NCBI GenBank assembly: GCA_041651535.1
Contig: JBAZIZ010000002.1
Location: 1,006 to 65,005, forward strand
DNA from: Patescibacteria group bacterium
GTDB taxonomy: Bacteria; Patescibacteriota; Patescibacteriia; Magasanikbacterales; UBA922
Direction of reading: 5' to 3'
Length of the DNA stretch: 64,000 nucleotides
A model generated the notes under the pieces. It was not told the origin of the DNA. It saw only the letters and a list, made by a program, of their open reading frames with translations, and searched no databases. This document shows positions 27,001 to 52,226 of this stretch, piece after piece (position 1 is the first letter of the stretch; each line of letters starts with the position of its first letter). The translations under genes were made by a program, and so were the position numbers.

Positions 27001-27005
27001 AGAAA

Positions 27006-30034: not shown

Positions 30035-30036
30035 AA

Positions 30037-31662: not shown

Positions 31663-31726
31663 AATTTTGTTAATATTAAATTGTTTTACTAATCATATTA
31701 TATAAAAAATCAAGCATTTTAGCAAC

Positions 31727-33070: not shown

Positions 33071-33153
33071 ATTTTAGATTGGAATTGAAGATTTAAAAAA
33101 AATACCGCTGGCTTAATCACCAACGGCTTTTTTATAAAAATTTATACCTCCCC

Positions 33154-33831: not shown

Positions 33832-33949
33832 TCTTCTCTCCTTTTTTATAAATTATAATGTGCAAAATTAATTTTCTAAGATTAACAAAATAAAAAAAGA
33901 AAGTCAATACTAAAATTTGACAAAAAAAATAAATTATATTATTATATTT

Positions 33950-34154: not shown

Positions 34155-34171
34155 ATACTTTTTATTAGTTT

Positions 34172-34795: not shown

Positions 34796-34864
34796 ATTTT
34801 AAGATAAAATGACAATAGTTTAAAACTTTATTTAATTATAGCAAAAAAACTGAAAACAAAGAAT

Positions 34865-36940: not shown

Positions 36941-37352
36941 AAATAATTTTCAAACTAACAGAATACATATTTTAAAATTAAATCCAAATCAAGATTTAAA
37001 ATTGTCAATAAAAAAATATATTAAAAAAAATAAAATTCAAGCAGGAATAATCTTGACCTGTGTCGGAAGTTTAAAAAAAGCAACCATTCGTCTGGCCGAA
37101 GAAAATATAAAAAATTTTAGTGAAAAATTTGAAATTATTTCTTTATCTGGAACTTTATCTCCTGATGGTGTTCATTTACACATTTCTCTGGCTGATAAAA
37201 AAGGGAAAATAATTGGCGGACATTTAAAAGAAAACTGTTTAATAAATACCACTGCTGAAATAATAATTATGGAAATTCTAAATTTTCACTTCAAACGTAA
37301 ACACGATAAAAATACTAATTATAAAGAATTAGATTTTAAAAAAATAAAATAA
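36930..37352 (+). CDS. PPC/DUF296-domain protein.
   Basis: ...QAGIILTCVGSLKKATIRLA...EIISLSGTLSPDGVHLHISLAD..GKIIGGHL matches the PPC fold. The start is placed at the internal Met (MKDKNNF), which overlaps the upstream stop codon by a few nt. The track ORF begins at 36861. Confidence 0.55.
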   Translation: MKDKNNFQTNRIHILKLNPNQDLKLSIKKYIKKNKIQAGIILTCVGSLKKATIRLAEENIKNFSEKFEIISLSGTLSPDGVHLHISLADKKGKIIGGHLKENCLINTTAEIIIMEILNFHFKRKHDKNTNYKELDFKKIK

Positions 37353-37384
37353 CCTACTTTCAGGTTATTTTTTTTTAATATGTT

Positions 37385-38551: not shown

Positions 38552-38564
38552 AAAAAACCAAATA

Positions 38565-39770
38565 TTATTTTTTATAAATTTCTTCAAGTTTTGAAATATA
38601 AATTCCATCATCTTGTAAAATACTAGAAATTCTATTATGCATTTCTGTTATTTTTTCTTTATTTTTAACAAGATAAATAATTTTTTCTTGTAAATTTTTT
38701 ATGTCACCCGCAACAAAAGTTATACCATTTTCGCCTTCAGCAATTAATTCGGCAATACCTTCTATATTACTTGCCAAAACTGGAATTTTAGCATACAAAC
38801 TTTCAAAAATAACCGTAGGAGAATTTTCATAACAAAGAGAAGGCACGATCATGACATCAATATTAGAAAATAAATTAGCTAATTCATTTCTTTTTATTTT
38901 ACCTAAAAATAAAATATTATCTTGTCGGTATTTTTCTTTTACTGTCAAAAATTTCGAACCAATACCAGCTACATAAAGACGGATATTTTCTTGAATTTTT
39001 TTATCCAAACTGGCAAAAGCTTCTAAAAGTAAAAAAATCCCTTTATGTTCTTCAATTTGTCCTAAATATAAAAAATTTATTTTTTCTTCTCCTAAAGTAG
39101 CTGATGTATTTTGCAAAGGTTTTTTTTCTTTAATTTCAAAATCAACTGTCAAAGGATTTCTTAACAAAGCAAATTTTGAATTAGGAAAAAATCCACGACT
39201 TTTGTAAAAATCTAACAAAAAAGTTGAAGGAGAGATAACAACTTCAGGCGAAGCAAACAGTCTTCTCATGATAAAAATATAAATTTTTGTCGGCCAGCCT
39301 GTATAACGCCAAGTTTTTTCTTTGTTTTTTAAAATTATTCCGCTTGGCTCAGCTAATTGGACATCATGAACAGTATGAACATGACGTAAATGCATTTCTT
39401 GAATCATTTTTGGAAGCAAAAAACTAAGCCCCATCAAATTATGAGTATGCACAACGTCTGGACTTTCTTTAATCAAAATACTTTTAATTTTATTTTTTAC
39501 TGAAAAATTAAAAATATCAAAAATGTGCCAAATAAATCGTAAAAAAATATTATATTTATGAGCATCGGTGTAATAAAAAATATTTTTCTGTTTTATCCTG
39601 TATATTTTTAATTTTTCTTTTCTTTCACTATATTCCCCTTGTGGAGAGCCACTAATCAAAACAACTTCATGTCCTTTTTCTAAGAGATTTTCTACAGTCT
39701 TTTTTACAACTTGTTCAGCCCCACCACGAGCAAAAGGTGGATATAAATTGTTTATAATACAAATTTTCAT
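38565..39770 (-). CDS. Glycosyltransferase family 4.
   Basis: The N-terminal MKICIINNLYPPFARGGAEQVV and the C-terminal sugar-donor-binding region (E..G.P.LEA) are present. Confidence 0.75.
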   Translation of the reverse strand: MKICIINNLYPPFARGGAEQVVKKTVENLLEKGHEVVLISGSPQGEYSERKEKLKIYRIKQKNIFYYTDAHKYNIFLRFIWHIFDIFNFSVKNKIKSILIKESPDVVHTHNLMGLSFLLPKMIQEMHLRHVHTVHDVQLAEPSGIILKNKEKTWRYTGWPTKIYIFIMRRLFASPEVVISPSTFLLDFYKSRGFFPNSKFALLRNPLTVDFEIKEKKPLQNTSATLGEEKINFLYLGQIEEHKGIFLLLEAFASLDKKIQENIRLYVAGIGSKFLTVKEKYRQDNILFLGKIKRNELANLFSNIDVMIVPSLCYENSPTVIFESLYAKIPVLASNIEGIAELIAEGENGITFVAGDIKNLQEKIIYLVKNKEKITEMHNRISSILQDDGIYISKLEEIYKK

Positions 39771-39942
39771 ATTTTTAATATTATACTATTTTTAACTTTG
39801 AAAGTCTAATCTTTTTAGATAACAAATAAGGAAAATAGCCACAAAAAATTCAATGTAAAAAAATGAATTTTTGTCAACAGAAAACCCACAGTCTCTCCAC
39901 TGCTTCAATTTGAATATAATTTTTAAATAATGTAAGATATAT

Positions 39943-41385
39943 TTGAAAAATAAAAATATGACTGATATTACAGTTAAAGAAAAAATACCGCCTCAAAATA
40001 TTGAAGCCGAAAAATCGTTTCTAGGTTCTATTTTGTTAGATAAAGATGCCATGATAAAAATAGCTGATTTGATGAATCCGCGTTTTTTTTATAAAAAAAG
40101 TCACGAAAAAATATACGAAACAATGACTGAACTTTATAATAATGGGGAGCCTATAGATGTTTTGACAGTTGCCAACCGTTTAGCAGAAAAAAATGAAGAA
40201 AAAGAAACTGGTGGTAAACCTTATTTAATTGAATTAAGCAACTCTGTACCAACTGCATCTCATGTAGAACAATATGCCAAAATAATCACTAAAAAATATA
40301 TTTTGAGACAATTGTTACATTCAGCTCAAGAAATCGCTGAACTTGGTTACAAAGAAGACGAAAATAATGTTGATACTTTGTTAGATTTAGCACAACAACA
40401 AGTTTTTGGTGTGGCTCAAACTCATGTTAAAAACAATTTTATTGCTATCAAAGATGTTTTAAATTCAGCTTTTGAAAGAATTGATGAGTTACATCGAGAA
40501 AAAGGAAAAATAAGAGGTGTACCAACAGGATTCAAAGATTTAGATAAACTTATAGCAGGATTCCAAAAATCAGACTTGGTTATTTTAGCTGCTCGACCTT
40601 CTGTAGGTAAAACTTCATTAGCTTTGGATTTTGCTAGATATGCTGCTGTAAACGCAAAAGTTCCAGTCGGTATTTTTTCTTTAGAAATGAGTAAAGAACA
40701 ATTAGTTGACCGTTTATTATGTGCTCAAGCTGGAATAGATTTGTGGAAACTTCGTACAGGAAATTTATCTGACAGACCAGACAGTCAAGATTTTCCTAGA
40801 TTAGGTCAAGCTATGGGAATTTTATCTGAAGCTCCAATTTTTATTGATGATAATGCAAACAGTAATGTTATGCAAATTAGAACAAAATGTCGTCGTTTAA
40901 AAGCAGAACATGGACTTGGACTGGTAATTATTGATTATTTACAACTGATGGATTCACATGATAAAAGAAATGGTGATAATCGTGTACAAGAAGTAGCTGA
41001 GATCAGTCGTAATTTAAAAGGAATTGCTCGTGAATTAGATGTACCAGTTTTAGCTTTATCTCAATTGTCACGTGCGGTAGAACAAAATAAACCAGCTATC
41101 CCAAAACTTGCTCATTTGCGTGAATCTGGAAGTATAGAACAAGATGCTGATTTAGTTTTATTTATTTACCGAAAATCAGCTGATAGAAATTATCGAATTG
41201 AAGATATTCCACCAGATGAATTAAATATTGGTGAAGTACATATAGCTAAACACAGAAATGGTCCAACTGGAAAAGTTAGAGTATTTTTTGATGCTGAAAA
41301 AGCCAGTTATCGTGATTTAGACACTCATTTTATGAATTCAGCAATTCCTAGTTCTGAAAATACTAATTCTTTTTCTGAAAACTAA
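39943..41385 (+). CDS. dnaB: Replicative DNA helicase DnaB.
   Basis: The N-terminal domain begins PQNIEAEKSFLGSIL. Walker A is GARPSVGKTSLAL, and RecA-like motifs (DYLQLM, SQLSR) follow. An alternative start lies at 39958. Confidence 0.9.
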   Translation: MKNKNMTDITVKEKIPPQNIEAEKSFLGSILLDKDAMIKIADLMNPRFFYKKSHEKIYETMTELYNNGEPIDVLTVANRLAEKNEEKETGGKPYLIELSNSVPTASHVEQYAKIITKKYILRQLLHSAQEIAELGYKEDENNVDTLLDLAQQQVFGVAQTHVKNNFIAIKDVLNSAFERIDELHREKGKIRGVPTGFKDLDKLIAGFQKSDLVILAARPSVGKTSLALDFARYAAVNAKVPVGIFSLEMSKEQLVDRLLCAQAGIDLWKLRTGNLSDRPDSQDFPRLGQAMGILSEAPIFIDDNANSNVMQIRTKCRRLKAEHGLGLVIIDYLQLMDSHDKRNGDNRVQEVAEISRNLKGIARELDVPVLALSQLSRAVEQNKPAIPKLAHLRESGSIEQDADLVLFIYRKSADRNYRIEDIPPDELNIGEVHIAKHRNGPTGKVRVFFDAEKASYRDLDTHFMNSAIPSSENTNSFSEN

Positions 41386-41421
41386 AGCAATTTTAAATTT
41401 ATTTATTTTTAATTTTTATTT

Positions 41422-41718
41422 ATGTTTAACAAATTAAAACAATTCAAAGATTTACGCGATCAAGCTAAAGAATTACAAAGTAAATTAGCTCAAGAATCAG
41501 TAAGTTCAGAGAAAAATGGTGTAAAAATAACTTTAGACGGAAATTTAGAAATGACTGGAATTGAAATTGAAACTTCTTTTTTGAATTCTGATAAAAAAAA
41601 TAAATTAGAAGAGACAATTAAAGAGGTTCATAAAGATGCTCTTAAAAAAATTCAAAGAGTTATGGCTATGAAAATGAAAGAAATGGGCGGTTTACCAAAT
41701 ATTCCAGGAATAAATTAA
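41422..41718 (+). CDS. ybaB: Nucleoid-associated protein YbaB/EbfC.
   Basis: The 98-aa product aligns along its full length with the YbaB family. It lies upstream of recR, as is typical. Confidence 0.85.
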   Translation: MFNKLKQFKDLRDQAKELQSKLAQESVSSEKNGVKITLDGNLEMTGIEIETSFLNSDKKNKLEETIKEVHKDALKKIQRVMAMKMKEMGGLPNIPGIN

Positions 41719-41722
41719 ACAA

Positions 41723-42316
41723 ATGTACCCAAAAACAATTGAACAACTTATAAAAAATTTTTCTAAATTACCAAGTGTTGGTCGTCGTACTGCTGAAAGA
41801 TTTGTTTTTCATTTATTAAAATCTGGAAAAAAAGATGTCGCAGAAATGGTTTTAAATTTAAAAGAAATTTCTAATAATATTCAAAGTTGTTCAACTTGTT
41901 GGAGTTTTTCTGACACTAATCCTTGTAAAATTTGTGCTGACAATAAACGCGACCAATCTACTATTTGTGTTGTTGCTGAACAACAACATATAGAAAATTT
42001 AGAAAAAACTGGAGCTTATACTGGTGTTTATCATATTTTACGCGGAGTTATCGATCCGGATGAAGATGAGTCCATTCGTAATTTAAAAATTCAGGAGCTT
42101 TTAATTAGAGTAAAAAATACCAAAATAAATGAAATAATCTTAGCTTTAAATCCTGATATGCACGGTGAAACAACTATGATGTTTTTAGAACAACAAATCA
42201 AAAAAATAGAACCAGGCATTAAAATAACTAGATTAGCCAAAGGTCTAGCTATGGGAAGTGATTTACAATATGCTGATGAAATAACTTTGGAAAATTCTTT
42301 AAAAAATAGAAAATAA
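41723..42316 (+). CDS. recR: Recombination protein RecR.
   Basis: A helix-hairpin-helix N-terminus (LPSVGRRTAERF), a C4 zinc finger (CSTCWSFSDTNPCKIC) and a Toprim domain are present. Confidence 0.9.
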   Translation: MYPKTIEQLIKNFSKLPSVGRRTAERFVFHLLKSGKKDVAEMVLNLKEISNNIQSCSTCWSFSDTNPCKICADNKRDQSTICVVAEQQHIENLEKTGAYTGVYHILRGVIDPDEDESIRNLKIQELLIRVKNTKINEIILALNPDMHGETTMMFLEQQIKKIEPGIKITRLAKGLAMGSDLQYADEITLENSLKNRK

Positions 42317-42406
42317 AAAACATTTAATTTATTCCCTGCTTGTTGGTTTAACTGTCTTTCAACAGACAGACAAACCGACAAATATTAGCAGATTAATTTA
42401 AAATCT

Positions 42407-42994
42407 ATGAAAAAACTAAATTTTTCTCTGATTGCTCTTTTCCTCCTAATTTTAATTGGCGGTGGTTGTGAAAAAGCAACTACTAATAATCAAAATGAAG
42501 AAAACACAAACTCAAAATCTGCTTTTGAAAATATAGTAGATGATACAAAACAAGATACAAAAGCATTAAACGGAATTGAAGCTAGAGCTGAAGTAAACAC
42601 TGACGGCACAGTCGATGTTTATTGGACAGTAAATGAAGAAATTAGTAAAAAAGCAGCTTCTTATCGCTTAATTTATGATAAAACCGAAAATCCGATTCAT
42701 CCTGGTTATATGTGGTTTGAAAGAGGAAAAAGTTATCGCGATAAATATTGGACAGGACTACCAGCTGGCAAAGGTTATATTAGAGTTTGTGTAGTAGAAA
42801 ACACAAAATGTATAGAATACAGTAATAATGTTGAAGTTGACATACCAGAAAATGAAACAAATAATATTAAAATAACTACAACTACAGAATCAATAACAAA
42901 CAAGGAAACTGATATGATTATTGAAGAAAATCAAATAGAAGAACAAAATAATGAAATTATTATAGATATAACCGCAACTACAACTCAAGAATAA
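42407..42994 (+). CDS. Putative lipoprotein of unknown function.
   Basis: A signal peptide with a lipobox-like LILIGGGC is followed by a low-complexity N/T/E-rich region. Confidence 0.5.
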   Translation: MKKLNFSLIALFLLILIGGGCEKATTNNQNEENTNSKSAFENIVDDTKQDTKALNGIEARAEVNTDGTVDVYWTVNEEISKKAASYRLIYDKTENPIHPGYMWFERGKSYRDKYWTGLPAGKGYIRVCVVENTKCIEYSNNVEVDIPENETNNIKITTTTESITNKETDMIIEENQIEEQNNEIIIDITATTTQE

Positions 42995-43010
42995 AAAAAG
43001 CGGAAAAAAG

Positions 43011-43043
43011 AAATCACTGCTCCATGCTTGCAGTGATTTTTTG
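43011..43043 (+). terminator. Rho-independent terminator after the lipoprotein gene.
   Basis: An 8-bp stem (atcactgc / gcagtgat) with a 9-nt loop is followed by TTTTTT. Confidence 0.6.
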
Positions 43044-43088
43044 ATTAAAAAAAACAGTATTTAAACTGCTAAATCTGAAATCAAAAAT

Positions 43089-43736
43089 CTAAAATACATT
43101 TACTTTTTCCCCTAAATATTTTGGTTTTAAATGTAAAAATTCAATTTCAAAAAATGCTTTAATCTTTGCAAATATTTCACGCCAAATCATCTTATCAATA
43201 TCAACATATTTATGTCTATCCGCAATCAAAGGATAAACTTTTACACCTAAATTTTCACAAATATATGTAATTCTATTTAAATGAAATTTTTGTGAAACAG
43301 CTATCACTTCATAATTATTCAAATCAAAAATTTCTTTTGCTCGATAACAACTATCATAAGTATCAAAACCTGCATAATCTAGAATAATATCTTCTGGATT
43401 AACTCCTTTACTTATAGCATAATCTTTCATAGGAACAACTTCATTGTATTTGCTACTACCATTATCTCCCGTCATAAGTATTTTTTTTACTTTATCATTT
43501 TTATATAATTCAACCGCAGTTTCTACTCGATCTTCTAAAACTCCACTTAAAGTACCATTACGAAAAACACTAGCACCAAAAACTAAAGCTACACTTGAAG
43601 TTGGTACATTTTCTATATTATAAATTATATTATCTTGAAAATTATCAACTTTCATTTGAATAAACCAAAAAACCGTAATCAAAATCATTAAAACAAAACT
43701 TATCCAAAAACTAATTTTATATTTTACTTTTGTCAT
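43089..43736 (-). CDS. DUF218 (SanA/YdcF/ElyC-family) membrane-anchored protein.
   Basis: An N-terminal TM helix is followed by a DUF218 core (VALVFGASV...GVLEDRVETAVELY...ILMTGDNG...). Confidence 0.7.
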   Translation of the reverse strand: MTKVKYKISFWISFVLMILITVFWFIQMKVDNFQDNIIYNIENVPTSSVALVFGASVFRNGTLSGVLEDRVETAVELYKNDKVKKILMTGDNGSSKYNEVVPMKDYAISKGVNPEDIILDYAGFDTYDSCYRAKEIFDLNNYEVIAVSQKFHLNRITYICENLGVKVYPLIADRHKYVDIDKMIWREIFAKIKAFFEIEFLHLKPKYLGEKVNVF

Positions 43737-43956
43737 TTTTTTATTTATTATTTTTTTAATAATTAATGTTTTTTAAAATAATTAGTAATAATTCACAATA
43801 TTTAAGGGATACCCCCATTCGTCCCCCCTCTTCGAACTCACTACGATATGACAAATTGATTGAGCATTTGTTTTAAAGTTTGATTAATTAATCATGTTTG
43901 TCTTGGTTTTTTAAAGACTAAAATTAAAATACTTAAACGATAATTAAAATCTAACT

Positions 43957-43994
43957 GCTTTTGACTTTTGACATTTGACTCTGTACTTTCGACT
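43957..43994. repeat. TTGAC iteron-like repeat block immediately 3' of uvrB. It belongs to the same family as 51104-51286 and 19561-19675.
   Basis: In gcttttgacttttgacatttgactctgtactttcgacttt, TTGAC recurs at 7-8 bp spacing. A GC-rich patch lies 110 nt upstream at 43803-43848. Confidence 0.45.
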
Positions 43995-46064
43995 TTACTC
44001 ATTGGCTTTACTTATCAACTTATCAACTTTTTTTAATTTTACATTTTGCATTTTTAATTTGTTTACTTCATCCCGTAAAATTGTTGCTAATTCAAACTCT
44101 AATTTTTTACTAGCTTCACGCATTTGTTTTTCTTTTGTTTTTATAAGTTCATCTATATTTTGATTTTCACCAATTAAATCCAAATCTAAAATTAAATTGG
44201 TTTTTTTGTTAGCTACAAAAGATTCTTTTTTATTTGGACTAATACCAAAATCTTCCAAAATATTTCTAATATTTTTTTCAATTGTTTTTGGTGTTATATT
44301 ATTTTTTTTGTTATAGGCAAGCTGGATTTGGCGACGACGTTCAGTTTCACTTAAAGCTTTTTTAATTGAATCTGTCATAATATCAGCGTACAAAATTACG
44401 CGACCATTTACATTTCTAGCTGAACGTCCAATTGTTTGGATTAAACTTGTTTCATTTCGTAAAAATCCTTCTTTATCAGCATCTAAAATTGCCACTAAAG
44501 AAACTTCTGGAATATCCAAACCTTCACGAAGTAAATTTACTCCAACTATAACATCAATCTCCCCTTTTCTTAATTTAGTTATAATGTCTATTCTATCTAT
44601 TGTTTTTACATCACTGTGTAAATATTCAACTTTAATATTTTTTTCTTTCAAAAATTCAGTTAAATTTTCTGCTTGTTTTTTTGACAAAGTTGTAATTAAA
44701 GTCTTTTCTTTTTTTGTTACTTGTTTTTTGATTTCTAAAATCACATCTTCAATTTGGGAATAATTTTGATTATTTTTTTGATTGATAGGTCGGATAATTA
44801 CTTCTGGATCAATAAGTCCAGTTGGACGAACTATTTGTTCAACTATTTTTTGACTTTCCTCAAATTCAAATTCAGCTGGAGTAGCCGAAACAAAAATCAT
44901 TTGTCCTACTTTTTCTAAAAATTCTTTAAATTTCAACGGACGATTATCTCTAGCGCTTGGCAAACGAAAACCATATTCAATCAAATTATCTTTTCGTGAC
45001 TTATCGCCATTATACATCGCGCGAATTTGTGGCAAAGTTACATGAGACTCATCAATCACTGTCAAAAAATCAGTATCACATTTTTTAAAATAATCCAGCA
45101 AAGTATAAGGAGCATCACCCAAATTACGACCATCAAAATAACGTGAATAATTTTCAATTCCATTACAATAACCAATTTCTTTTATCAATTCTAAATCATA
45201 ATTTGTTTTTCTTTTTAATCGTTCATATTCCAAAATTTTTCCTTGCTTTTTAAAAAAATCTAATCTTTCTTTTAGATCTTCTTTAATTAAAGAAATTTGT
45301 TCTTCTAATTTTTGTTCATCAACTACATAATGTTTAGCTGGAAAAAACCAAGCGTCTTCTAAATTTTCTCGAATTATTTTTCTAGATATAGCATCTAGTA
45401 AATCTATTTTGTCAATTTTATCTGAAACTTCAAAACGATAAATTCTTTCTTCATTTACAGGCATAATTTCAAAAACTTGTCCACGCATTCTAAACATTCC
45501 TCTAGATAACTCTAGATTGCTACGATTGAATTGCATGTCAACTAATTTTTTTAAAAGCAAATGTCGATCTATTTTTTCACCTTTTTTAATCTGAATCACT
45601 TTTTTTCCATATTCAAGTGGCGAACCTAAACCATAAATAGCACTCACTGAAGCTACAATAATTACATCTTTTCTAGATAACAAAGCTTGCGTAGCCGCAT
45701 GACGCAATCTGTCTATTTCTCCATTTATTTGAGCTTCTTTTTCTATATAAGTATCTGAATTTGGTAAATAACTTTCTGGCTGATAATAATCATAATATGA
45801 AACAAAATATTCAACTGCATTTTCTGGAAAAAATTCTCTAAATTCATTACAGAGTTGGGCTGCTAAAGTTTTATTATGAGCTATAACCAAAGTTGGTTTT
45901 TGAATTTTTTCAATCACATTAGCAATTGTAAAAGTCTTACCACTACCAGTAACTCCAAGTAAAGTTTGGTTTTTTATTTTATTATCCAAACCTTTTACCA
46001 ATTCTACAATCGCTTGTGGTTGTCCACCACTAGGTTTGTATGCTGATTTTAATTTAAATTTCAT
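43995..46064 (-). CDS. uvrB: Excinuclease ABC subunit B.
   Basis: Walker A is GVTGSGKT. Helicase motifs, the beta-hairpin region, and the C-terminal UvrB/UvrC interaction coiled coil are present. Confidence 0.9.
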   Translation of the reverse strand: MKFKLKSAYKPSGGQPQAIVELVKGLDNKIKNQTLLGVTGSGKTFTIANVIEKIQKPTLVIAHNKTLAAQLCNEFREFFPENAVEYFVSYYDYYQPESYLPNSDTYIEKEAQINGEIDRLRHAATQALLSRKDVIIVASVSAIYGLGSPLEYGKKVIQIKKGEKIDRHLLLKKLVDMQFNRSNLELSRGMFRMRGQVFEIMPVNEERIYRFEVSDKIDKIDLLDAISRKIIRENLEDAWFFPAKHYVVDEQKLEEQISLIKEDLKERLDFFKKQGKILEYERLKRKTNYDLELIKEIGYCNGIENYSRYFDGRNLGDAPYTLLDYFKKCDTDFLTVIDESHVTLPQIRAMYNGDKSRKDNLIEYGFRLPSARDNRPLKFKEFLEKVGQMIFVSATPAEFEFEESQKIVEQIVRPTGLIDPEVIIRPINQKNNQNYSQIEDVILEIKKQVTKKEKTLITTLSKKQAENLTEFLKEKNIKVEYLHSDVKTIDRIDIITKLRKGEIDVIVGVNLLREGLDIPEVSLVAILDADKEGFLRNETSLIQTIGRSARNVNGRVILYADIMTDSIKKALSETERRRQIQLAYNKKNNITPKTIEKNIRNILEDFGISPNKKESFVANKKTNLILDLDLIGENQNIDELIKTKEKQMREASKKLEFELATILRDEVNKLKMQNVKLKKVDKLISKANE

Positions 46065-46068
46065 AATT

Positions 46069-48102
46069 TTATTTTATCATTCGTAAAAATTCTTCCTCAG
46101 AAATTATTTTTATATTTAATTCTTTAGCCTTAGTAACTTTACTTCCAGGTTCATCCCCAGCTAAAACAAAATCTGTTTTTTTAGAAACTGACGAAGAATT
46201 TTGACCTCCTAAATTTCTAATTTTTTCTTTAATTTCATCACGAGAAAAATTTTCAAAACTTCCAGTGATGACAAAAGTTTTTCCTGATAATTTATTTTCT
46301 TTTTTAAAATCATCTTTTTTTATAACTACCCCATTTTTAAATAACTCCTGTATTAATTTTTGATTGTCATCGTCAGAAAAGAAAGAAAAAATTGATTCCG
46401 CAACTTTAATACCCACGTCATTTACTTTTTCTAAATCTTCAATTTTAGCATTTTTTATTTTTTCTAAAGAAACAAAATGATTAGCTAGTCTGATAGCTGT
46501 TTCTTCACCAACATGATTTATTCCTAAAGCATAAATAAAACGAGCTAAATTTATTTTTTTAGAATTTTCAATCGCAGTAATCAAATTAGAAGCTGATTTT
46601 TCAGCAAATCTTTCCAAAGGTTCCAAATCTCCAGTCTGTAAAATAAATAAATCAGCTGAATTTTTTATAAGTCCTTCATTTAATAATTGTTCCACAACTT
46701 TTTCTCCCAAACCATCAATATTAAAAGCTTTTTTAGACACAAAATGAATTATTTTTTCTAACTCACGAGCATAACAATTTTTATTTAGACAATACAAAGC
46801 TGCTGAATCTTCATTTTTATCTTTTTCTATTTTACGTCTAGCTACTTCATTACCGCAAATTGGACAATAACTCGGACTTTTGATAGTTTTTTCATTTCCA
46901 GTACGCATTTTTTCTAAAACTCTAACTACTTTTGGAATAATATCCCCTGCTTTTTCTACTATTACATAATCACCAATTTTTACACCGAGTCTTTGAATTT
47001 CATCAAAATTATGTAAAGTTGCATGAGTTACCGTTGTCCCAGCCAAATGAATCGGTTTCATGCGAGCAACTGGAGTCAAAGCTCCAGTTCTGCCAACTTG
47101 CCAATAAACTTCTTCAATCTGAGTTGCACTTTGTTCGGCAGGAAATTTAAAAGCTATACCCCAACGTGGAGCTTTTCCAGTGTATCCTAAAATATCTTGG
47201 TATTTTTTTTGGTTAATTTTTATCACCATACCATCTATCCAATAAGCAAAAGTTTTTTTATGTTTTTCCAGATAAAAATAAAAATTCATTATTTCGTCAA
47301 TACTTTTACATTTTCTCCAATGTCCATCTGTCAAAAAACCCAATTCTTTTAATTTATTAAGTTCTTGTTCTTGACTAATAATTTCAGAATTTTCACTTGA
47401 AATATCATAAACTGTAACTGCTAATTTTCTTTTGGCAACTATTTGTGGATCTAATTGACGGATTGTGCCAGCAGCTGCATTACGAGGATTAGCAAATTTT
47501 ATTTCATTGTTTTTTATTCGTTCTTCATTTATTTTATCTAGCATTTTTTCATTAAGCCAAATTTCACCTTCAGCAATTAAATCTATTTCTTGATTGATTT
47601 TAAGCGGTACACTTTGAATTGTTTTTATATTTTGTGTAACATTTTCACCGACTTTACCATCACCACGAGTCGCTGCTATTTTTAAAATTCCTTGTTTATA
47701 AGTTAAAACAACGTGCAAACCATCGATTTTTAATTCGCAAATATAATCTAAATCTTCTGGTCTTTTTCCTAATTCTTTTTCTAAAATTTTAAAATTTCTT
47801 TCTTCCCAATCAAGAAGATCTTGTTTATCAAAAGCATCAGCAAAAGACCATTGTTTGACTTCATGAATAACTTTTTCAAATTTATCCAAAGGTTTGCCTG
47901 CTACCCTTTGTGTTGGTGAATCAGAGCTGATTAATTCTGGGTATTCTTTTTCAATCTTTTTCAATTCATCCATAAGTCCTTCATACATTTGATCAGTAAC
48001 TTCTGGATCATTTAAAACATGATAACGATAACGCAAATCATCAATTTGATCTCGTAAATTTTTAATTTTTCTTTTAATATTTGAAATATTTTCTAACATC
48101 AT
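46069..48102 (-). CDS. ligA: NAD-dependent DNA ligase.
   Basis: The adenylation motif is KIDGLHV. The OB fold, Zn-finger cysteines (CPICGNEV...C), HhH and C-terminal BRCT domains are all present. Confidence 0.9.
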   Translation of the reverse strand: MMLENISNIKRKIKNLRDQIDDLRYRYHVLNDPEVTDQMYEGLMDELKKIEKEYPELISSDSPTQRVAGKPLDKFEKVIHEVKQWSFADAFDKQDLLDWEERNFKILEKELGKRPEDLDYICELKIDGLHVVLTYKQGILKIAATRGDGKVGENVTQNIKTIQSVPLKINQEIDLIAEGEIWLNEKMLDKINEERIKNNEIKFANPRNAAAGTIRQLDPQIVAKRKLAVTVYDISSENSEIISQEQELNKLKELGFLTDGHWRKCKSIDEIMNFYFYLEKHKKTFAYWIDGMVIKINQKKYQDILGYTGKAPRWGIAFKFPAEQSATQIEEVYWQVGRTGALTPVARMKPIHLAGTTVTHATLHNFDEIQRLGVKIGDYVIVEKAGDIIPKVVRVLEKMRTGNEKTIKSPSYCPICGNEVARRKIEKDKNEDSAALYCLNKNCYARELEKIIHFVSKKAFNIDGLGEKVVEQLLNEGLIKNSADLFILQTGDLEPLERFAEKSASNLITAIENSKKINLARFIYALGINHVGEETAIRLANHFVSLEKIKNAKIEDLEKVNDVGIKVAESIFSFFSDDDNQKLIQELFKNGVVIKKDDFKKENKLSGKTFVITGSFENFSRDEIKEKIRNLGGQNSSSVSKKTDFVLAGDEPGSKVTKAKELNIKIISEEEFLRMIK

Positions 48103-48104
48103 AT

Positions 48105-48884
48105 TTAAGTAATAATTTTAAGATAGAACGAAATTAGTTTATCTCCCCAAAACAACGTGACAAAAGAAGCTGGCATCAAAAAACATCCCAAAGGGACCTC
48201 GCTGTTCATTTTTTTTCCTTTTTTAACAAGTAAAAAAATAGAAATAATAGCTCCTAAGATATAAGCTAACCATAAAGCCAAAAGTAGTTTTTGCCAATCA
48301 AATAAAACACCCATAAAAATAGCGATTCTTATATCTCCACCGCCTATCCATTTTCCTTTAGATAATAAAAATTGGATTCCAAAAAAACTTATCCCAATAA
48401 AAATACTCAAAAACATGGAACTCCAAGAACGAAAATCAAAAATATAATAAAATACAAACAGTAAAATAGCTGAACCAAGAGTAATTAAATCTGATATTTC
48501 TAGATATTTAAAGTCGTAAATAAAGACAAAAATCATTGTCCAGACAATTACACAATTGATAATTATTTTTATCCATAAATACAGGTCAATATTTTCTGAA
48601 TAAAAAAAATTAAAAACAAAGACAAAAAGTACAGCTGTTATTAATTCTACAAGTGGATATTGCCAAGAAATTTTTTGTCTGCAATTACGACATTTTCCTT
48701 TTAAAAACAAAAAACTAAACAATGGGATATTGTCATAAAATTTTATTTTGGCTAAACATTTTGGACAAAACGAACGCTGAGTTTTCCAATCTAAATTACG
48801 TTTTATTCTGAATTCTAAAGCATTCAAAAAACTACCAAAAATGGCTCCAAAAACAAAAAATATAAAACTAAAATATATTATCAT
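48105..48884 (-). CDS. pilD: Type IV prepilin peptidase (A24 family).
   Basis: An N-terminal Cys-rich zinc-binding box (CPKC...CRNC) and a multi-TM peptidase domain are present. Confidence 0.8.
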   Translation of the reverse strand: MIIYFSFIFFVFGAIFGSFLNALEFRIKRNLDWKTQRSFCPKCLAKIKFYDNIPLFSFLFLKGKCRNCRQKISWQYPLVELITAVLFVFVFNFFYSENIDLYLWIKIIINCVIVWTMIFVFIYDFKYLEISDLITLGSAILLFVFYYIFDFRSWSSMFLSIFIGISFFGIQFLLSKGKWIGGGDIRIAIFMGVLFDWQKLLLALWLAYILGAIISIFLLVKKGKKMNSEVPLGCFLMPASFVTLFWGDKLISFYLKIIT

Positions 48885-48983
48885 ATCAATTATAATAATA
48901 ACATATTTTAATAATAAAATAAAATCAAAAAGACGCCTATAAAATAAGCGCCTTTTAAAGATTTATTTAAACAAATCAAAAAA

Positions 48984-49439
48984 TTATTGGGCTGGACCAA
49001 CTAATCCAGAAGGTGTTCCGGTTACGATACCGTCTCCGAAATTACCACCACCAATTTCTAATTCTGCTGTCAAAACATAAGTGGAACCATCTGCTGAACG
49101 ATATTGATAATATTCATCATTTGAAGGTCCGGCTGGGATATTATCCATATATGGATCAGTACAAGCTCCTGTAGCATCAAAGCCATCAGAATCTATACAA
49201 CCATGTGTAGTATCTCCTAAATCAACAGCTGTAGCAGCAACTGGATATGCATTATTATCTGTATAATACAATTCAAGAGCTGTTTGAACTTGTTTAACGT
49301 CTAATAATCTTTTTGAATCATTAGCTTTTTTACGAGCTGAACCCAAAGCAACTACAGACAAAGTGGATAATAAACCAATTATGGCTACAACCACCAACAA
49401 TTCTATTAATGTAAAACCTTTTTTATTCATAAATTTCAC
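48984..49439 (-). CDS. Type IV pilin / pseudopilin with a class III signal peptide.
   Basis: The N-terminus has the prepilin motif KGFTLIELLVVVAIIGLLS (G/F cleavage, then E+5). The gene is GC-richer than its surroundings. Confidence 0.75.
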   Translation of the reverse strand: MKFMNKKGFTLIELLVVVAIIGLLSTLSVVALGSARKKANDSKRLLDVKQVQTALELYYTDNNAYPVAATAVDLGDTTHGCIDSDGFDATGACTDPYMDNIPAGPSNDEYYQYRSADGSTYVLTAELEIGGGNFGDGIVTGTPSGLVGPAQ

Positions 49440-49467
49440 CCCCTTTCCTTTTGGAAAGATTAATTTT

Positions 49468-49845
49468 TTAAATTAAAATTTTTTTTACTTTATCAACTAT
49501 CTCGCTTGGTTTAAAATGAGATTTGATCACATAATCACTTGCACCTTTAACTAAGCCTTTTTTTACATCTTCTTTTTGTCCCAAATTAGTATGTAAAATT
49601 ACTGGAATATCTTTTAAAATTGAATTTTGTTTTAATTTTTCTAACATGGTCAATCCGTCTGTTTTTGGCATTAAAATATCTAATAAGATTATATCTGGTT
49701 TTTTTCTCTGGGCCACTAATAAACCTTCTTCTCCATCTCCAGCAGTATAAACCTTAAATTTTTCCATTTCAAATTTAGTCTTATAAATATTGACCAAAAA
49801 CTCATCATCATCTACTATCAGTATACTATATTTCTTTTTAAACAT
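49468..49845 (-). CDS. Stand-alone response-regulator receiver domain (CheY/PilH-like).
   Basis: ILIVDDDEF...ILLDILMPKTDG... carries the conserved acidic pocket and the phospho-acceptor Asp, with no output domain. Confidence 0.75.
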   Translation of the reverse strand: MFKKKYSILIVDDDEFLVNIYKTKFEMEKFKVYTAGDGEEGLLVAQRKKPDIILLDILMPKTDGLTMLEKLKQNSILKDIPVILHTNLGQKEDVKKGLVKGASDYVIKSHFKPSEIVDKVKKILI

Positions 49846-49904
49846 AACTGTTTTTATAATATAATTATAACAAAAATCATCAATTATTGAAACCCAGCTG
49901 TGGA

Positions 49905-51065
49905 TTATTTAAAATTTTTTAAAGCTAAACCAATAGAAACAGCCATGCGTGGTCCAATAGTATCCAAAGTATTTTTTAAACCATTTTGATAAATAACTCT
50001 AGCCCATGGATCACCAATAAAAACATTCAAAGAAAATTGTGTTTTTAAATATTTTTCAATTGGAGGAAAAAATGAACTGCCACCAGTTAAAATTATTTTT
50101 TCTGGTTTTTTACCAGCATTGCCCGTTTGTTTAAAATACAAATCAAAACTATATTGAATTTCTTTGGCTAAAGGATCTAAAACACTTAAAAATATATCAT
50201 CTGTTAAATCTGTTTGCCAATTTGAAGATAAATCTTTTTTAATTTGAACAACTTGTTCTTTATCTAAAGATAATTTTTTCATTAATATTTCATCAATATC
50301 ATCGCCACCAATTTGTAAACTACGGTTAGTCATCGGAATACCTTTATCAACTATCAGTAAATCAGTATTTTCTGCTCCGATATCTACAACCATTACAACT
50401 GAAGAATCATAACCAACCAAAGAACGTGAAATGGCAAAAGCTTCAGTTTCTAAATCAATAAGTTCCAAGCCAGCTTTTTTAAAAATTAAAGTATAAAAAG
50501 CTATCAAAGATTTTGGGGCTGCAGTTACTAAAAGAGAAATAAATTTATTATCCTTGTTTTCACCATTTATTTTTTGATAAATTACTTGCATTTCTTCAAT
50601 CGGACGAGAAATCATTTTTGCAATTTCGGCATTAACTATACCTTGAATTTCTTTTTCTTCAACTATTGGTAAATTTATAACAGTATGAAAAACTTGAGAA
50701 ACTGGCAAACTTGAAGTCGCAATCTTTGAATTTACTTTGGCAGTGGTAACCAATTCTTTTAAATATTTGGCATATTTTTCAACTCTTTTATCTTGCAATA
50801 CAAAATCATTGTAATTTTGAGTAGCAACTACGTCTTGTTTTTCATAAAAATCTGAATATTTTTTTTCAGCCATTTTTAAAATGTCAATCGCCTCTTTTTC
50901 TTTTTCAATAGAAATATGGACATCTAATTTTTTATCTAAAATAGCATAAGTCCAGAGTTGTGGACGATTTTTTGTTTTTTTAATTTCAACTAATTTAATT
51001 CCATTTGAGCCAATATCTACACCCAAATAAGATTCAACTTTATTTTTAAATAATGACATAAACAC
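49905..51065 (-). CDS. pilM: Type IV pilus assembly protein PilM (actin-like ATPase fold).
   Basis: The N-terminal LGVDIGSNGIKLVEI and the overall actin-like layout are typical of PilM. Confidence 0.75.
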   Translation of the reverse strand: MFMSLFKNKVESYLGVDIGSNGIKLVEIKKTKNRPQLWTYAILDKKLDVHISIEKEKEAIDILKMAEKKYSDFYEKQDVVATQNYNDFVLQDKRVEKYAKYLKELVTTAKVNSKIATSSLPVSQVFHTVINLPIVEEKEIQGIVNAEIAKMISRPIEEMQVIYQKINGENKDNKFISLLVTAAPKSLIAFYTLIFKKAGLELIDLETEAFAISRSLVGYDSSVVMVVDIGAENTDLLIVDKGIPMTNRSLQIGGDDIDEILMKKLSLDKEQVVQIKKDLSSNWQTDLTDDIFLSVLDPLAKEIQYSFDLYFKQTGNAGKKPEKIILTGGSSFFPPIEKYLKTQFSLNVFIGDPWARVIYQNGLKNTLDTIGPRMAVSIGLALKNFK

Positions 51066-51103
51066 TATTGTTATTTTATGTATATATTATAACACAAAAC
51101 ATA

Positions 51104-51286
51104 GTCAAAAGTCTAAAGTCAAAAGCTACCACGCCCACCATCGCAAGCTCAGGCGTTGCAGGCGGGAAAGTCATGTTTTTAAGAAAATTATATATTTAAA
51201 CTAAGTTTCTTAGAACAAATAAAGTTTTATTTTAATTTTTTTTAGTAAAAGACTTTTGACACATTCGACTTTCGACATTTGACTTC
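51104..51286. repeat. Inverted-repeat element with GTCAAAAG-type arms enclosing a GC-rich core (MITE-like).
   Basis: The left arm agtcaaaagtctaaagtcaaaag (51104-51126) is the reverse complement of the family seen in the right arm gacttttgacacattcgactttcgacatttgacttc (51251-51286). The core 51127-51172 is about 65% GC in a ~25% GC genome. Confidence 0.45.
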
Positions 51287-51317
51287 TAGTTTGCCTACTT
51301 ATTTATCAAATTACCCC

Positions 51318-52226
51318 TTAATTATTTATCTGTGGAGTCCTAATCTTATACCCACTTTCTCCTATTTCCAAAATAATATCTCCCACAAAATCCGTCCGCC
51401 AAACATTAGAGTTGATTCTTTCTAATCTTTTTAAAATTCTTCGTGATGGATGTCCAAAATTATTATTTTTTCCAACCGAAACAATTGTTTCTTGTGGTTT
51501 AACTGCATTTAAAAATTCTTGCCCAGATGAAGTATCCGAACCATGATGACCAGCTTTCAAAATATCTGATTTTAATTGATTATCTTTATAAACAGACACT
51601 AAATAATTTTCTATATCAACTTCCATATCTCCGGTAAACAAAACTGTCGTACTATTAAAATCCAAACCAAAAATAATAGAAGTGTTATTTAAATTTGAAT
51701 TTTCTTCTTTTGAATCAAAATTTAAATTATGTTCAGGATAAAAAAAATTTACAGTTGAACTACCAAAATTCCAAGTTTGATTTTGATCAATATTGATTAA
51801 ATTTATATTTTTATTATTAACAGCAGTCAAAAAACTTTGCCAAATTTTATCGGTTTCAATTTTTAAACCATTATAAATTACATTTTTTACTTCAAATCTA
51901 TTTATCACTTCTTCACAGCCACCATAATGGTCACTATGTTCATGAGTAATCAAAAGATAATCAATTGTTTTATCATAATAATCCATGTTTCTTCCCAAAG
52001 CTTCCAAAATACGAGCATCTTCCGAACAATCTACTAAAATTTTTTCTCCATTATTTAAATTTAACAAAATTCCATCACCTTGCCCGACATCCATAAAAAT
52101 TATTTCTATTTTTTTAGCAATATTTTCATTGTCTAACAAAGAATTGGTATTTTTTCTAAGAAAAAATAAAAAAATAAACGAAATCAACAATAAAATTATA
52201 ATCAAATATTCAATTTTTTTAAGCAT
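51318..52226 (-). CDS. MBL-fold metallo-hydrolase with an N-terminal TM helix (the ComEC C-terminal-domain homologue, here a separate gene).
   Basis: The metal-binding motif HEHSDH appears in YLLITHEHSDHYGG. The gene overlaps the ComEC stop codon by 8 nt in a different frame. Confidence 0.75.
   Translation of the reverse strand: MLKKIEYLIIILLLISFIFLFFLRKNTNSLLDNENIAKKIEIIFMDVGQGDGILLNLNNGEKILVDCSEDARILEALGRNMDYYDKTIDYLLITHEHSDHYGGCEEVINRFEVKNVIYNGLKIETDKIWQSFLTAVNNKNINLINIDQNQTWNFGSSTVNFFYPEHNLNFDSKEENSNLNNTSIIFGLDFNSTTVLFTGDMEVDIENYLVSVYKDNQLKSDILKAGHHGSDTSSGQEFLNAVKPQETIVSVGKNNNFGHPSRRILKRLERINSNVWRTDFVGDIILEIGESGYKIRTPQINN

Follow-up and report, generated by a model that had tools for sequence, protein, structure and literature searches.

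Degenerate tandem heptamers form a rapidly remodelled spacer between the MBL and pilM genes of a Magasanikbacteria-like Patescibacterium

The 258-nt intergenic region between a metallo-beta-lactamase (MBL) gene and pilM in a Magasanikbacteria-like Patescibacterium is, we conclude with high confidence, a vertically inherited and rapidly remodelled spacer of degenerate tandem heptamers, that is, of long simple-sequence repeats (LSSR) of the STRR type. It most likely acts as an overgrown terminator/promoter spacer, and other bacteria have known spacers of this sort. Our main reading, to which we assign a probability of roughly 0.4, is that its arrays are slippage-expanded A and U tracts of a terminator that have become fused to the pilM promoter. 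The anatomy, the pattern of conservation, the position of the promoter and the layout in common with predicted terminators are observed; termination, transcript stabilisation and promoter activity are inferred.

The genomes of Patescibacteria are very compact, experimental data on their transcription are nearly absent, and in cultivated members type IV pilus and competence genes are central to epibiotic life. Should the arrays act as terminator/promoter modules, they would offer an initial picture of transcription-unit boundaries in this group, and simple slippage repeats would prove recruitable as regulatory structure beside type IV pilus and competence genes. If neutral, they would still be fast-evolving strain markers and a known cause of assembly breaks (the contig of one relative, L004, ends inside an 11-mer array). 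Either way a false lead is removed, with neither a MITE nor a new RNA gene to be expected at MBL-pilM.

Layout of the MBL-pilM region

The features of the region and of comparable sites in the window (the whole 64-kb stretch of DNA that was analysed) are collected in Table 1. The MBL ORF is a separate C-terminal module of ComEC and the last gene of a leuS-comEC-MBL string, closing a DNA-uptake operon; it is preceded by an ORF with the Pfam domains Competence/DUF4131. Read on the minus strand, which is the sense strand of all flanking genes, its stop codon is followed by an A-rich (AAAGTCN)n array, an AT-rich spacer, a GC hairpin, a T-rich (NGACTTT)n array and the extended -10 promoter of pilM. 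The inverted-repeat-bounded element is 183 bp long and lacks coding capacity. Its distal arm, which reads GAAGTCAAATGTCGAAAGTCGAATGTGTCAAAAGTCT on the sense strand, begins 32 nt past the MBL stop; the block just before it is a remnant of a AAGTAAGC-type repeat family (F3) that recurs in sister genomes. The proximal arm consists on the sense strand of three T-rich heptamers, GCTTTTGACTTTAGACTTTTGACT, and pairs with the distal one.

Table 1. Positions of features in the MBL-pilM region (site 1), at the two other sites with related arrays and at two comparator sites
Feature	Position	Strand	Basis
MBL ORF stop codon (TAA)	51318..51320	-	ORF list; Pfam Lactamase_B
A/G-rich block AATAAGTAGGCAAACTA, just 5' of distal arm	51287..51304	-	aligns with AATAAGCAAGTAGGTAAAGCTA in L126
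Distal (right) arm aGACTTTTGACACATTCGACTTTCGACATTTGACTTC	51250..51286	-	degenerate heptamers (F1), TRF, MFE fold
AT-rich spacer with local AU hairpin (51212-51206 pairs with 51186-51180)	51173..51249	-	MFE structure
GC-rich core, 63% GC	51127..51172	-	composition, MFE fold
Proximal (left) arm aGTCAAAAGTCTAAAGTCAAAAGc	51103/4..51126	-	heptamer array, TRF, MFE fold
-35-like hexamer TAGACT of pilM promoter	51110..51115	-	promoter scan, 18 nt from -10
Extended -10 element TGTTATAAT of pilM	51086..51094	-	TGnTAYAMT conservation
pilM start codon ATG	51057..51059	-	384-aa product on record exactly; Pfam PilM_2
Site 2, A-rich F1 array AGTCGAAAGTACAGAGTCAAATGTCAAAAGTCAAAAGC (sense strand)	43957..43996	-	TRF period 7, 5.6 copies
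GC-rich patch upstream of DUF218 gene	43803..43848		composition scan
Site 3, distal arrays AATTAAAAATGCAAAATTAA-AAAGTAAAAAGTCAAAAAA (sense strand)	19655..19694	-	overlap uvrA end
Site 3, inner palindrome, GATTT-type heptamers (F2)	19589..19653		inverted repeats I3 + I18, TRF
Site 3, proximal arm CTTTTGACTTTAGACT	19560..19576	-	-35 region just upstream of uvrC
Comparator, predicted bidirectional terminator between convergent HU and FtsL-like genes	15066..15127		terminator scan, both strands
Comparator between two convergent genes	13498..13561		sequence; TRF 13539-13563, period 7

Inverted arms with TTGAC units at a spacing of 7-8 bp, around a GC-rich core of some 46 nt, had been noticed in a preliminary description of this DNA, and both stand: TRF places period-7 arrays at 51103-51125 (3.3 copies) and 51264-51285 (3.1 copies), and the core measures 46 nt and has 63% GC, against about 27% for the window. 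The units are degenerate (GTCAAAA/GTCGAAA/GTCTAAA/GTAAAAA) and come in arrays of 3-6. In the best ungapped register 18 of 23 bases of the arms are complementary, and the MFE structure joins them by helices of 10 bp (51276-51267 with 51113-51104) and 8 bp (51260-51253 with 51125-51118), directly followed by UAUGUUUU. On either strand, none of 200 dinucleotide shuffles folds as well as the whole intergenic region (z -3.8 and -3.4). As in heptanucleotide LSSR/STRR arrays, the 7-nt units run head to tail, are dispersed over intergenic DNA and can form hairpins (z -3.8 at site 1, a nested palindrome at site 3).

The core is an outlier in composition. Stretches of 40 nt with at least 58% GC occur at only six places in the 64 kb, three of them intergenic (23549-23613, 43806-43845 and 51120-51175). 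On the sense strand the core forms a hairpin, CCCGCC-UGCAA...UUGCG-GGUGGG (51166-51134, about -16 kcal/mol centroid), located roughly 150 nt past the MBL stop. The rarity of such islands, together with a promoter-like TTGTTC-N18-TATATA upstream of the core and a U-rich tail downstream, both read from the sequence, would be in keeping with an sRNA or a cis-regulatory leader expressed inside the spacer; a small structured RNA gene had also been proposed. We regard this as very improbable. Folded alone, the core is not better than shuffles (z -0.5 to -0.9), and neither it nor the GC patch at site 2 has significant structure. Rfam covariance models gave zero matches at E<=10 in 50950-51450 and 43700-44050; over the whole window, with sites 1 and 2 and a tRNA-flanking GC patch, searched at gathering and permissive thresholds, tRNA-Gln was the sole match. 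Nor are the GC patches conserved. Sister genomes carry only a short GC palindrome of 11-16 nt at the position of the core (TCCGCCAGTTGGCGGA in L123, CCAGCTGGTGG in L126), and L023 has nothing there; the patch at site 2 is lineage-specific, and the orthologous region of L130 has the conserved flank without the G-rich segment. The core has no exact match in viral contigs, and a phage or foreign origin was rejected on that ground.

The region in related genomes

The regions of relatives were compared by manual and semi-global alignment, a global MAFFT alignment of the window with L023 having misaligned. The sister species L126 (PilM 76% identical) has both the distal arm and its preceding block in place, as ttAGAAGTCAAAgGTCGAAAGTCAAAAGTC, which indicates from sequence that the arm was inherited vertically and remodelled rather than inserted. 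Within the distal array 20 of 21 positions are conserved with L126, where no pairing partner exists; the AT-rich spacer has no conservation in L126 or L123. The only other record of the same strain (L002) is identical.

Among 19 orthologous MBL-pilM regions, 11 carry tandem arrays of 6-12-nt units, mostly of period 7, and seven fold with z <= -3. The units are species-specific and complementary within each region, as in L020 (AAAGTTC/TTTGAAC) and L027 (AAAAGTA/ACTTTCT), and L004 sets an 11-mer in ten copies against an inverted 10-mer in six. What the orthologues keep is the pairing and the layout, not the sequence itself. In about 7-8 of 10 array-bearing orthologues an A-rich 5' arm is combined with a U-rich 3' arm, and unit numbers differ between sister species. 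Across the clade, many intergenic regions bear tandem arrays of 7-11 nt with units that differ between species. Several relatives (L003, L010, L013, L023 and L026) have MBL-pilM spacers of 45-85 nt without array or hairpin, and in the streamlined L023/L128 genome spacers of 84 nt and 14 nt are free of arrays.

These comparisons bear on the earlier proposal of a miniature mobile element, which would here be a non-autonomous, MITE-like transposon lying between MBL and pilM, its terminal inverted repeats consisting of heptamers. The terminal inverted repeats are present, the 183-bp unit is non-coding, arm sequences recur in two other intergenic regions, and the element is absent from L023 (PilM 75% identical), which keeps the same promoter and has diverged flanks. 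Against such an insertion, no target-site duplication borders 51104-51286 (flanks ...cacaaaacat / tagtttgcct...), and the interiors of the three sites are unrelated, only the arm heptamers recurring; a direct-repeat search found no family covering the element interior. The distal arm and its 5' flank are in place in L126, as are the site 2 array in L130 and the site 3 array in L127, and the arrays keep a fixed orientation towards the genes. The window ORFs that were scanned or had precomputed Pfam hits yielded no transposase or integrase. A mobile element is accordingly a highly doubtful explanation.

Arrays elsewhere in the window

The recurrences reported previously (43957-43994, 43803-43848 and 19561-19675) are all present. 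Counted within the 64-kb window, GTCAAAAG occurs 9 times against 3.84 expected, a number reached by none of 100 shuffles. Clusters of at least three units stand only at 51104, 51255 and 43960, and two-unit clusters at 19561 and, outside the three sites, at 8622 and 26033. Positions 19560 and 51110 have the 16-mer AGTCTAAAGTCAAAAG in exact copies, and the 16-mer CTTTTGACTTTAGACT of the proximal arm at pilM is identical upstream of uvrC (Table 1). TRF gave further period-7 arrays at 43958-43996, 19622-19653 and 19653-19695, and about 19 kb of further contig added a single arm-type array, at cysS. In the approximately 83 kb examined, F1 is found at four loci and F2 at eight or more, nearly all intergenic or overlapping ORF ends. 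A DNA uptake sequence was considered and rejected, as no 7-10-mer is strongly over-represented in the window and GTCAAAAG has only 9 occurrences in 64 kb.

At site 2 the array begins directly past the uvrB stop codon, has no inverted partner and has a homologous counterpart in L130. At site 3 the distal arrays overlap the last codons and stop of uvrA (KLKMQN*), and the uvrA end of L127 carries AAAAGTAGAAAGTCAAAAGTAA; at the proximal arm the block CTTT(T)AGACTAAAnTAATTTATTAATTT is also conserved in L127. The F2-type sequence ATTCTAGATT occurs 4 times against 0.59 expected.

The sense strand shows an orientation rule, with A-rich arrays past the stops of MBL, uvrB, uvrA and the FtsL-like gene (in L130 also of DUF218) and T-rich arrays abutting the promoters of pilM, uvrC, mraZ and cysS. 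Three other roles were set aside. A three-frame stop-codon barrier fails since F1 in sense orientation contains no stop codons, planar DNA bending since 7-bp phasing gives no planar bend (by reasoning only), and an MraZ operator since mraZ has separate GTGG-N6-GTGG boxes, which lie downstream of the -10 of its promoter.

The pilM promoter

A promoter scan predicts TAGACT-N18-TATAAT for pilM (10 of 12 matches), with TG ahead of the -10. The element TGnTAYAMT lies 8-27 nt ahead of the pilM start in 16 of the 19 orthologous intergenic regions, and L023 and L123 have TGGACT at the spacing of TAGACT in the window, with TATAAT and the upstream TG. The -35 and the spacer of this predicted promoter coincide in part with the proximal arm, and at cysS, on the same contig, an F1-family array carries a consensus TTGACT-N17-TATAAT promoter upstream. 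The suggestion that the heptamers are tandem -35 boxes or a multi-site operator is partly supported by this overlap and by the cysS array; a classical regulator operator is disfavoured, since unit sequences vary over the clade. The distal arms were also read for antisense promoters, and no acceptable -10 was found at the right spacing. A parC-like centromere upstream of the actin-like ATPase (PilM) was rejected: arrays of this type also lie beside uvr genes and cysS, and they are inverted, not direct.

A lineage-specific factor could still read the heptamers as iterated sites in DNA or in 3'-UTR RNA, co-regulating the genes of DNA uptake and repair comEC/pilM, uvrA, uvrB and uvrC, with the T-rich copies doubling as tandem -35/UP elements. 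Three of the four F1 sites in about 83 kb flank comEC-MBL/pilM, uvrB and uvrA/uvrC, the distal array keeps its 20 of 21 positions in L126 despite having no pairing partner there, and the cysS array contains its consensus promoter. A 7-nt period would also suit ring-shaped RNA or ssDNA binders, and HutP binds NAG-N4 repeats. We nevertheless consider such binding unlikely. A conserved regulon motif would not be expected to differ as the units do in relatives whose PilM is about 60% identical, where they are unrelated, and at least four different unit families coexist within one genome; the fourth F1 site, at cysS, is functionally unrelated, no candidate DNA-binding gene travels with the arrays, and a 7-bp spacing would put successive duplex sites on different helix faces.

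Known repeat systems

The closest published analogue is the cyanobacterial STRR, 7-bp intergenic hairpin-forming repeats found, for example, at hupS-hupL, where stabilisation of the transcript is proposed and function unproven (PMC2670836). Among the long simple-sequence repeats of prokaryotes, heptamers form the most frequent class and are attributed to polymerase slippage, according to the summary of Mrazek (2007) given in PMC4679880. The arrays described here are likewise tandem 7-nt intergenic units, in several families per genome and at many loci, and can form hairpins between co-transcribed genes. They differ from STRR in being degenerate rather than exact and short (3-6 units), and in forming A-rich/T-rich inverted pairs with fixed positions relative to stops and promoters, often around a GC hairpin, in a Patescibacterium. 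Full-text literature searches yielded no description of such repeats in Patescibacteria.

The TAACTGA repeats of Beggiatoaceae, Cyanobacteria and Bacteroidetes (PMC4679880) are also intergenic heptamer direct repeats in 2-6 copies, with limited overlap with ORF ends and a suspected RNA-level role. They are exact, lie mostly just upstream of starts and are almost never inverted, whereas the present arrays are degenerate, form inverted pairs and lie past stops and in -35 regions. With REP/BIME, BOX, Correia/NEMIS and MITEs they have in common that they are species-specific 3'-end modules with hairpin-capable inverted pairs and mosaics (F1-F4); unlike these, they have no 20-40-nt unit palindrome with a conserved head and no target duplications, but tandem heptamers whose orthologous positions are conserved between sister species. 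No RAYT/Y1 transposase, as would be looked for with REP/BIME, was found among the window ORFs examined.

CRESS-like viral contigs contain GGTCAAA in three copies, a hairpin and inverted TTTGACC, and phages contain long heptamer-pattern arrays. Like the iterons of rolling-circle origins, the arms place a heptamer triplet on one side of a GC-rich hairpin and an inverted copy opposite; here, in contrast, there is no Rep gene and no nonanucleotide loop, and the arrays are chromosomal and occur at many loci. The likeness to viral and phage patterns is one of form only.

A proposed terminator/promoter spacer

In our main reading, the arrays would be the slippage-expanded A-tract and U-tract that flank the intrinsic-terminator hairpins of this genome. 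In RNA read from comEC-MBL, the two arms would pair and close a branched structure around the GC hairpin, leaving the U-rich run UAUGUUUUGUGUU directly 3' of the paired structure. Together these may stop or attenuate read-through and protect the 3' end of the upstream mRNA, and the T-rich arm as DNA would supply the -35-like hexamer and a T-rich upstream region for the pilM promoter.

The layout of A-array, hairpin and T-array is common to a predicted terminator at 15079-15107 and to a terminator-like site at 13498-13561, the latter recognised from sequence and TRF. The first, where the scan matches, has A-rich heptamers, a GC hairpin and the T-rich heptamer array TTAATTTTGCATTTTTAATT, and is supported by an exact 20-mer; the second reads AAGTAAACAAGCAAGTAAG-AAAAAATCTACT TTTC AGTAGATTTTT-AATTTTTATTTTTAATT, an A-rich array, a hairpin and a T-rich period-7 array. 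The MBL-pilM region resembles such a bidirectional intrinsic terminator in the order of its parts, in its position past the stop codon and in the U-rich run past the arm-arm helix, and it has a stable GC-containing hairpin downstream of the MBL stop. It departs from one in the AT-rich spacer of about 75 nt between A-arm and hairpin, and in a closing helix that spans about 125 nt and whose 3' arm overlaps the next promoter. A terminator scan of the minus strand over 50900-51500 returned no terminator-like site, because the GC stem is followed by seven nucleotides that are not U-rich, with no U-run within 0-2 nt. The array-less spacers of L003, L010, L013, L023 and L026 imply that termination at the MBL-pilM junction is dispensable.

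The main rival is that the arrays are functionless by-products of heptamer replication slippage and template-switch inverted duplication in a small AT-rich genome, expanding in tolerant intergenic DNA up to a constrained element (the upstream ORF end or downstream promoter). This we hold to be somewhat unlikely. In its favour, arrays end exactly at stop codons and promoters or overlap them, species differ in units and copy numbers, streamlined relatives (L023/L128) do without arrays, GC patches are lineage-specific, intergenic DNA shows a weak lag-7 autocorrelation throughout the genome, and heptamers are the commonest slippage class in prokaryotes. It is less readily squared with the 16-mer and 11-mers common to loci 31 kb apart, with families F1, F2 and F3 being common to sister species at several loci, with a strong orientation rule relative to transcription, and with the arms of one intergenic region always coming from complementary families.

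A broader form of the terminator/promoter reading, for which we see a small chance, would make the arrays a clade-wide intergenic punctuation, with (AAAGTCN)n past stops and its complement at promoters, paired across a GC hairpin. Either they would then work as a terminator-insulator-promoter module with several registers, or a dedicated RNA/DNA-binding protein would read them, and unit sequences co-evolving per genome would explain why the arms are species-specific and internally complementary.

Some arrays do not follow the terminator model. The F1 arrays of site 2, L126 and L130 have no complementary partner, and a T-rich F1 array lies in the divergent cysS intergenic region, where no terminator is needed. 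The opposite A/U order is seen in the array hairpins of L006 and L123 and in the F2 hairpins past uvrC.

Anatomy of the MBL-pilM spacer

Against a window GC content of 27%, with nearly all genes on the minus strand, the spacer between the metallo-beta-lactamase (MBL) ORF and pilM (site 1) contains everything that the preliminary description had reported there. Its two arms are tandem arrays of period 7 and enclose 46 nt of 63% GC; at least 58% GC over 40 nt is reached at only three intergenic places in the 64 kb. Aligned in their best register, the arms are complementary at 18 of 23 positions; the MFE structure pairs them in helices of 10 and 8 bp, with UAUGUUUUGUGUU directly after the arm-arm helix. 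The whole-spacer fold beats 200/200 shuffles on both strands (z -3.8 and -3.4). Within the window GTCAAAAG occurs 9 times (3.8 expected). Three or more units cluster at 51104, 51255 and 43960 alone, and two units at 19561 and, outside the three sites, at 8622 and 26033; one 16-mer is identical at 19560 and 51110. The repeat structure of site 1 is a genuine feature with statistical support.

Features of the window and repeat-unit families (L037 is a locus handle)
Feature	Position	Description
MBL-pilM spacer (site 1)		258 nt, between the MBL ORF and pilM
Left arm (pilM side)	51103-51126
Right arm (MBL side)	51250-51286
pilM	49905-51059	then receiver-only response regulator, pilin, prepilin peptidase, ligA, uvrB
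Extended -10 of pilM	51094-51086	TGTTATAAT
-35-like element of pilM		TAGACT, 18 nt upstream of the -10, inside the left arm
MBL ORF	51318-52226	separate C-terminal module of ComEC, preceded by the DUF4131+Competence ORF
DUF4131+Competence ORF	52219-53712	overlapping first ORF of ComEC
Leucyl-tRNA synthetase	53716-57108	1130 aa; domain insertions following the editing domain: NUDIX (residues 383-500), alpha/beta-hydrolase (596-704)
FG-GAP protein gene	57687-62681	1664 aa; ~14 tandem repeats at 59342-61910, unit 186-189 nt (62-63 aa), 60-76% identity among repeats
Site 2 array	43957-43996	after the uvrB stop
Site 2 GC patch	43803-43848	upstream of DUF218
Site 3	19560-19694	uvrA/uvrC
mraZ upstream region	16878-17053	predicted terminator 17052-17037, then T-rich tandem array 16987-17019
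TTAATTTTGCATTTTTAATT-type 20-mer	15105-15124, 19675-19694, 44033-44059	exact at two sites, near-exact at a third
GC-rich stretch	23549-23613	65 nt, 58% GC, immediately 5' of tRNA-Gln (23472-23543, minus strand)
F1		AAAGTC[AGT]/AAAGTAA
F2		GATTT-type; ATTCTAGATT 4 times (0.59 expected)
F2 arrays	18210-18283, 10055-10090, 43060-43091; L037 30-110 and ~3620-3673
F3		AAGTAAGC/GCTTACNN
F4		AATTAAAAATGCAAAATTAA

The site 1 arrays belong to an already known kind of repeat. The closest described systems are the Beggiatoaceae TAACTGA repeats, the cyanobacterial STRR, which are 7-bp tandem repeats forming intergenic hairpins and possibly stabilising transcripts (PMC2670836), and heptanucleotide long simple-sequence repeats, a general class in the account of Mrazek 2007 summarised in PMC4679880. 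Literature searches turned up no account of arrays of this sort in Patescibacteria.

The spacer in relatives

The closest named relatives of PilM and UvrC are Candidatus Magasanikbacteria/Parcubacteria MAGs at ~60% identity; database proteins identical to those of the window carry the annotation 'Patescibacteria group bacterium'. The order leuS-comEC-MBL-pilM-response regulator-pilin-peptidase-ligA is conserved in loci that include these genes. Tandem arrays of 6-12 nt, mostly of period 7, were present in 11 of 19 MBL-pilM spacers, and 7 of the 19 fold with z <= -3. The units vary by species and the two arms of any one spacer are complementary: AAAGTTC/TTTGAAC in L020, AAAAGTA/ACTTTCT in L027 and GGTTGAGATAA x10 against inverted ATATCTCAAT x6 in L004 (L-numbers denote contigs or loci, here of relatives); the L006 arrays are 9-mers. 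Five relatives have the promoter alone, in spacers of 45-85 nt.

Among closer relatives, L126 (PilM 76% identical) retains the distal arm nearly unchanged (ttAGAAGTCAAAgGTCGAAAGTCAAAAGTC) with the preceding AATAAG..AAGTAGGyAAA block, holds CCAGCTGGTGG at the core position, and has its promoter directly bordered by a T-rich heptamer array (CTTTTTACTTTTTCCTTTTTC...). L123 (78%) carries a GATTT-type array hairpin, then a GC hairpin TCCGCCAGTTGGCGGA, then the promoter. The 84-nt spacer of L023 (75%) has the same promoter without arms or core, in a genome streamlined here and at one other spacer (ligA-DUF218, 14 nt). This comparison indicates that the spacer was inherited and remodelled in place rather than made by recent insertion. 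The suggestion of a miniature mobile element fails on this in-place conservation, the fixed orientation, the unrelated interiors and the lack of target duplication; no transposase was found among the window ORFs examined.

The two-ORF split of ComEC is kept in the relatives examined, and L003 and L005 carry an inverted heptamer array between the halves. The insert in leucyl-tRNA synthetase is skipped by tblastn matches in several relatives and so appears variable.

The small RNA gene also proposed for site 1 fails as well. Rfam searches of sites 1 and 2 produced no match at E<=10, ARAGORN found only tRNA-Gln, and neither the GC core on its own (z -0.5 to -0.9) nor the site 2 GC patch folds better than shuffled sequence. 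Separately, the GC-rich stretch beside tRNA-Gln has a TTGCAA-N17-TATTAT-like promoter upstream. Its Rfam hits were all at chance level (E > 1), none of them credible, and its fold is only modest (z -0.8 and -1.6); it may represent either the leader of the tRNA or a small RNA that has gone unrecognised. L024, from a 36% GC relative, has a 1.1-kb GC-rich non-coding stretch (2506-3636) with two ~450-nt units, each starting ...ttgattcaatatatttgtgtaaatacactaaaccaagtgagcgac; the stretch is a candidate for a duplicated structured RNA or for a degenerate element.

Promoters and the operator reading

Of the 19 distinct MBL-pilM spacers, 16 have an extended -10 (TGnTAYAMT) 8-27 nt upstream of the start codon. 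The overlap of the -35-like element with the left arm lends partial support to the proposed tandem -35 boxes or operator. A classical operator is unlikely, since unit sequences change from one part of the clade to another and more than one family is present side by side. A factor that binds the arrays in this lineage only is possible. A DNA-uptake sequence was rejected, the window having no strongly over-represented 7-10-mer. Viral contigs of ~2.2-2.3 kb, one of 4.0 kb (L046, L055, L058, L066, L070, L085, L094, L099), carry GGTCAAA x3 adjoining a GC stem-loop with inverted TTTGACC beyond it, resembling iterons at a rolling-circle origin; these, and long GTCAAAN arrays also present in viral contigs, are analogies of form only.

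In many relatives (L003, L004, L007-L011, L026) the pilM ATG lies only 8-9 nt past the extended -10, which predicts leaderless or nearly leaderless mRNAs; uvrC of the window looks alike and lacks a Shine-Dalgarno sequence. Upstream of mraZ, the array unit differs in sister genome L127 (4641-4920; GCTTACNN x6). Common to both genomes are CTGTGGATAAAA, an extended -10 (TGGTTTATAAT in the window, TGGGTTATAAT in L127) and GTGG-N6-GTGGG boxes, which look like a MraZ operator. In three relatives, AACG(G/A)AT-type 9-mers x4 follow leuS upstream of a small ORF (L020 995-1028, L006 287-320, L012 1410-1442), and may be a real operator because their sequence, unlike that of other arrays, is conserved.

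Repeat families, orientation and sites 2 and 3

At least four unit families (F1-F4) coexist, and autocorrelation in intergenic DNA peaks at lags 7 and 14. Read on the sense strand, the arrays that come after a stop codon, or overlap it, are A-rich; they were seen at the stops of MBL, uvrB, uvrA and an FtsL-like gene, and of DUF218 in L130, a relative; T-rich arrays lie at the pilM, uvrC, mraZ and cysS promoters. The mraZ array is TTTTACTTTTGAAT x2.4, downstream of the predicted terminator, and the cysS array, in an adjacent part of the 132.7-kb metagenome contig, contains a consensus TTGACT-N17-TATAAT. F2 arrays start at or include the TAG stops of uvrC and DUF218 and are often hairpin-forming.

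As judged by sequence, sites 2 and 3 behave like site 1 across sister genomes. In L127 (UvrC 77% identical) uvrA likewise ends in an AAAGTA/AAAGTC array, which runs into the ORF (KLKVESQK*), and the uvrC-proximal block CTTTTnAGACTTTAGACTAAAnTAATTTATTAATTT is conserved. Upstream of DUF218, L130 has AGTCAAAAGTCACAAGTCGAATGTCGAAAGTC without the G-rich patch of the window, and its DUF218 stop is followed by another AAAGTAA/AAAGTCA array. The TTAATTTTGCATTTTTAATT-type 20-mer lies inside the 3' ends of the uvrA and uvrB ORFs and encodes Lys-rich KLKMQN-type tails; heptamer arrays thus extend into coding sequence, supplying C-termini and stop codons.

A possible terminator origin

At two places where genes converge, 15079-15107, called on both strands by the terminator scan, and 13498-13561, terminator-like by sequence only, the site lies between an A-rich and a T-rich heptamer array, which is a compact form of the site 1 layout. 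They suggest that the arrays are A-tracts and U-tracts expanded by slippage; on that view site 1 would be a terminator of this type that an AT-rich insert has lengthened and that has become joined to the pilM promoter. We infer this mechanism with real weaknesses in view. The scan found no U-run right after the site 1 GC stem, relatives do without any structure at this junction, arrays are unpaired at site 2, in L126 and in L130, and a divergent spacer holds one of the arrays. In the chief alternative explanation, the arrays are neutral filler, produced by slippage and template switching and bounded by constrained neighbours. Ordinary GC-hairpin-plus-U-run terminators are also predicted in the genome.

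In L037 a perfect 14-nt GC palindrome, GCCTGCCGGCAGGC (6378-6391), adjoins heptamer units between the divergent promoters of cysS and an amino-acid kinase. GC palindromes may have another role, because this divergent spacer needs no terminator.
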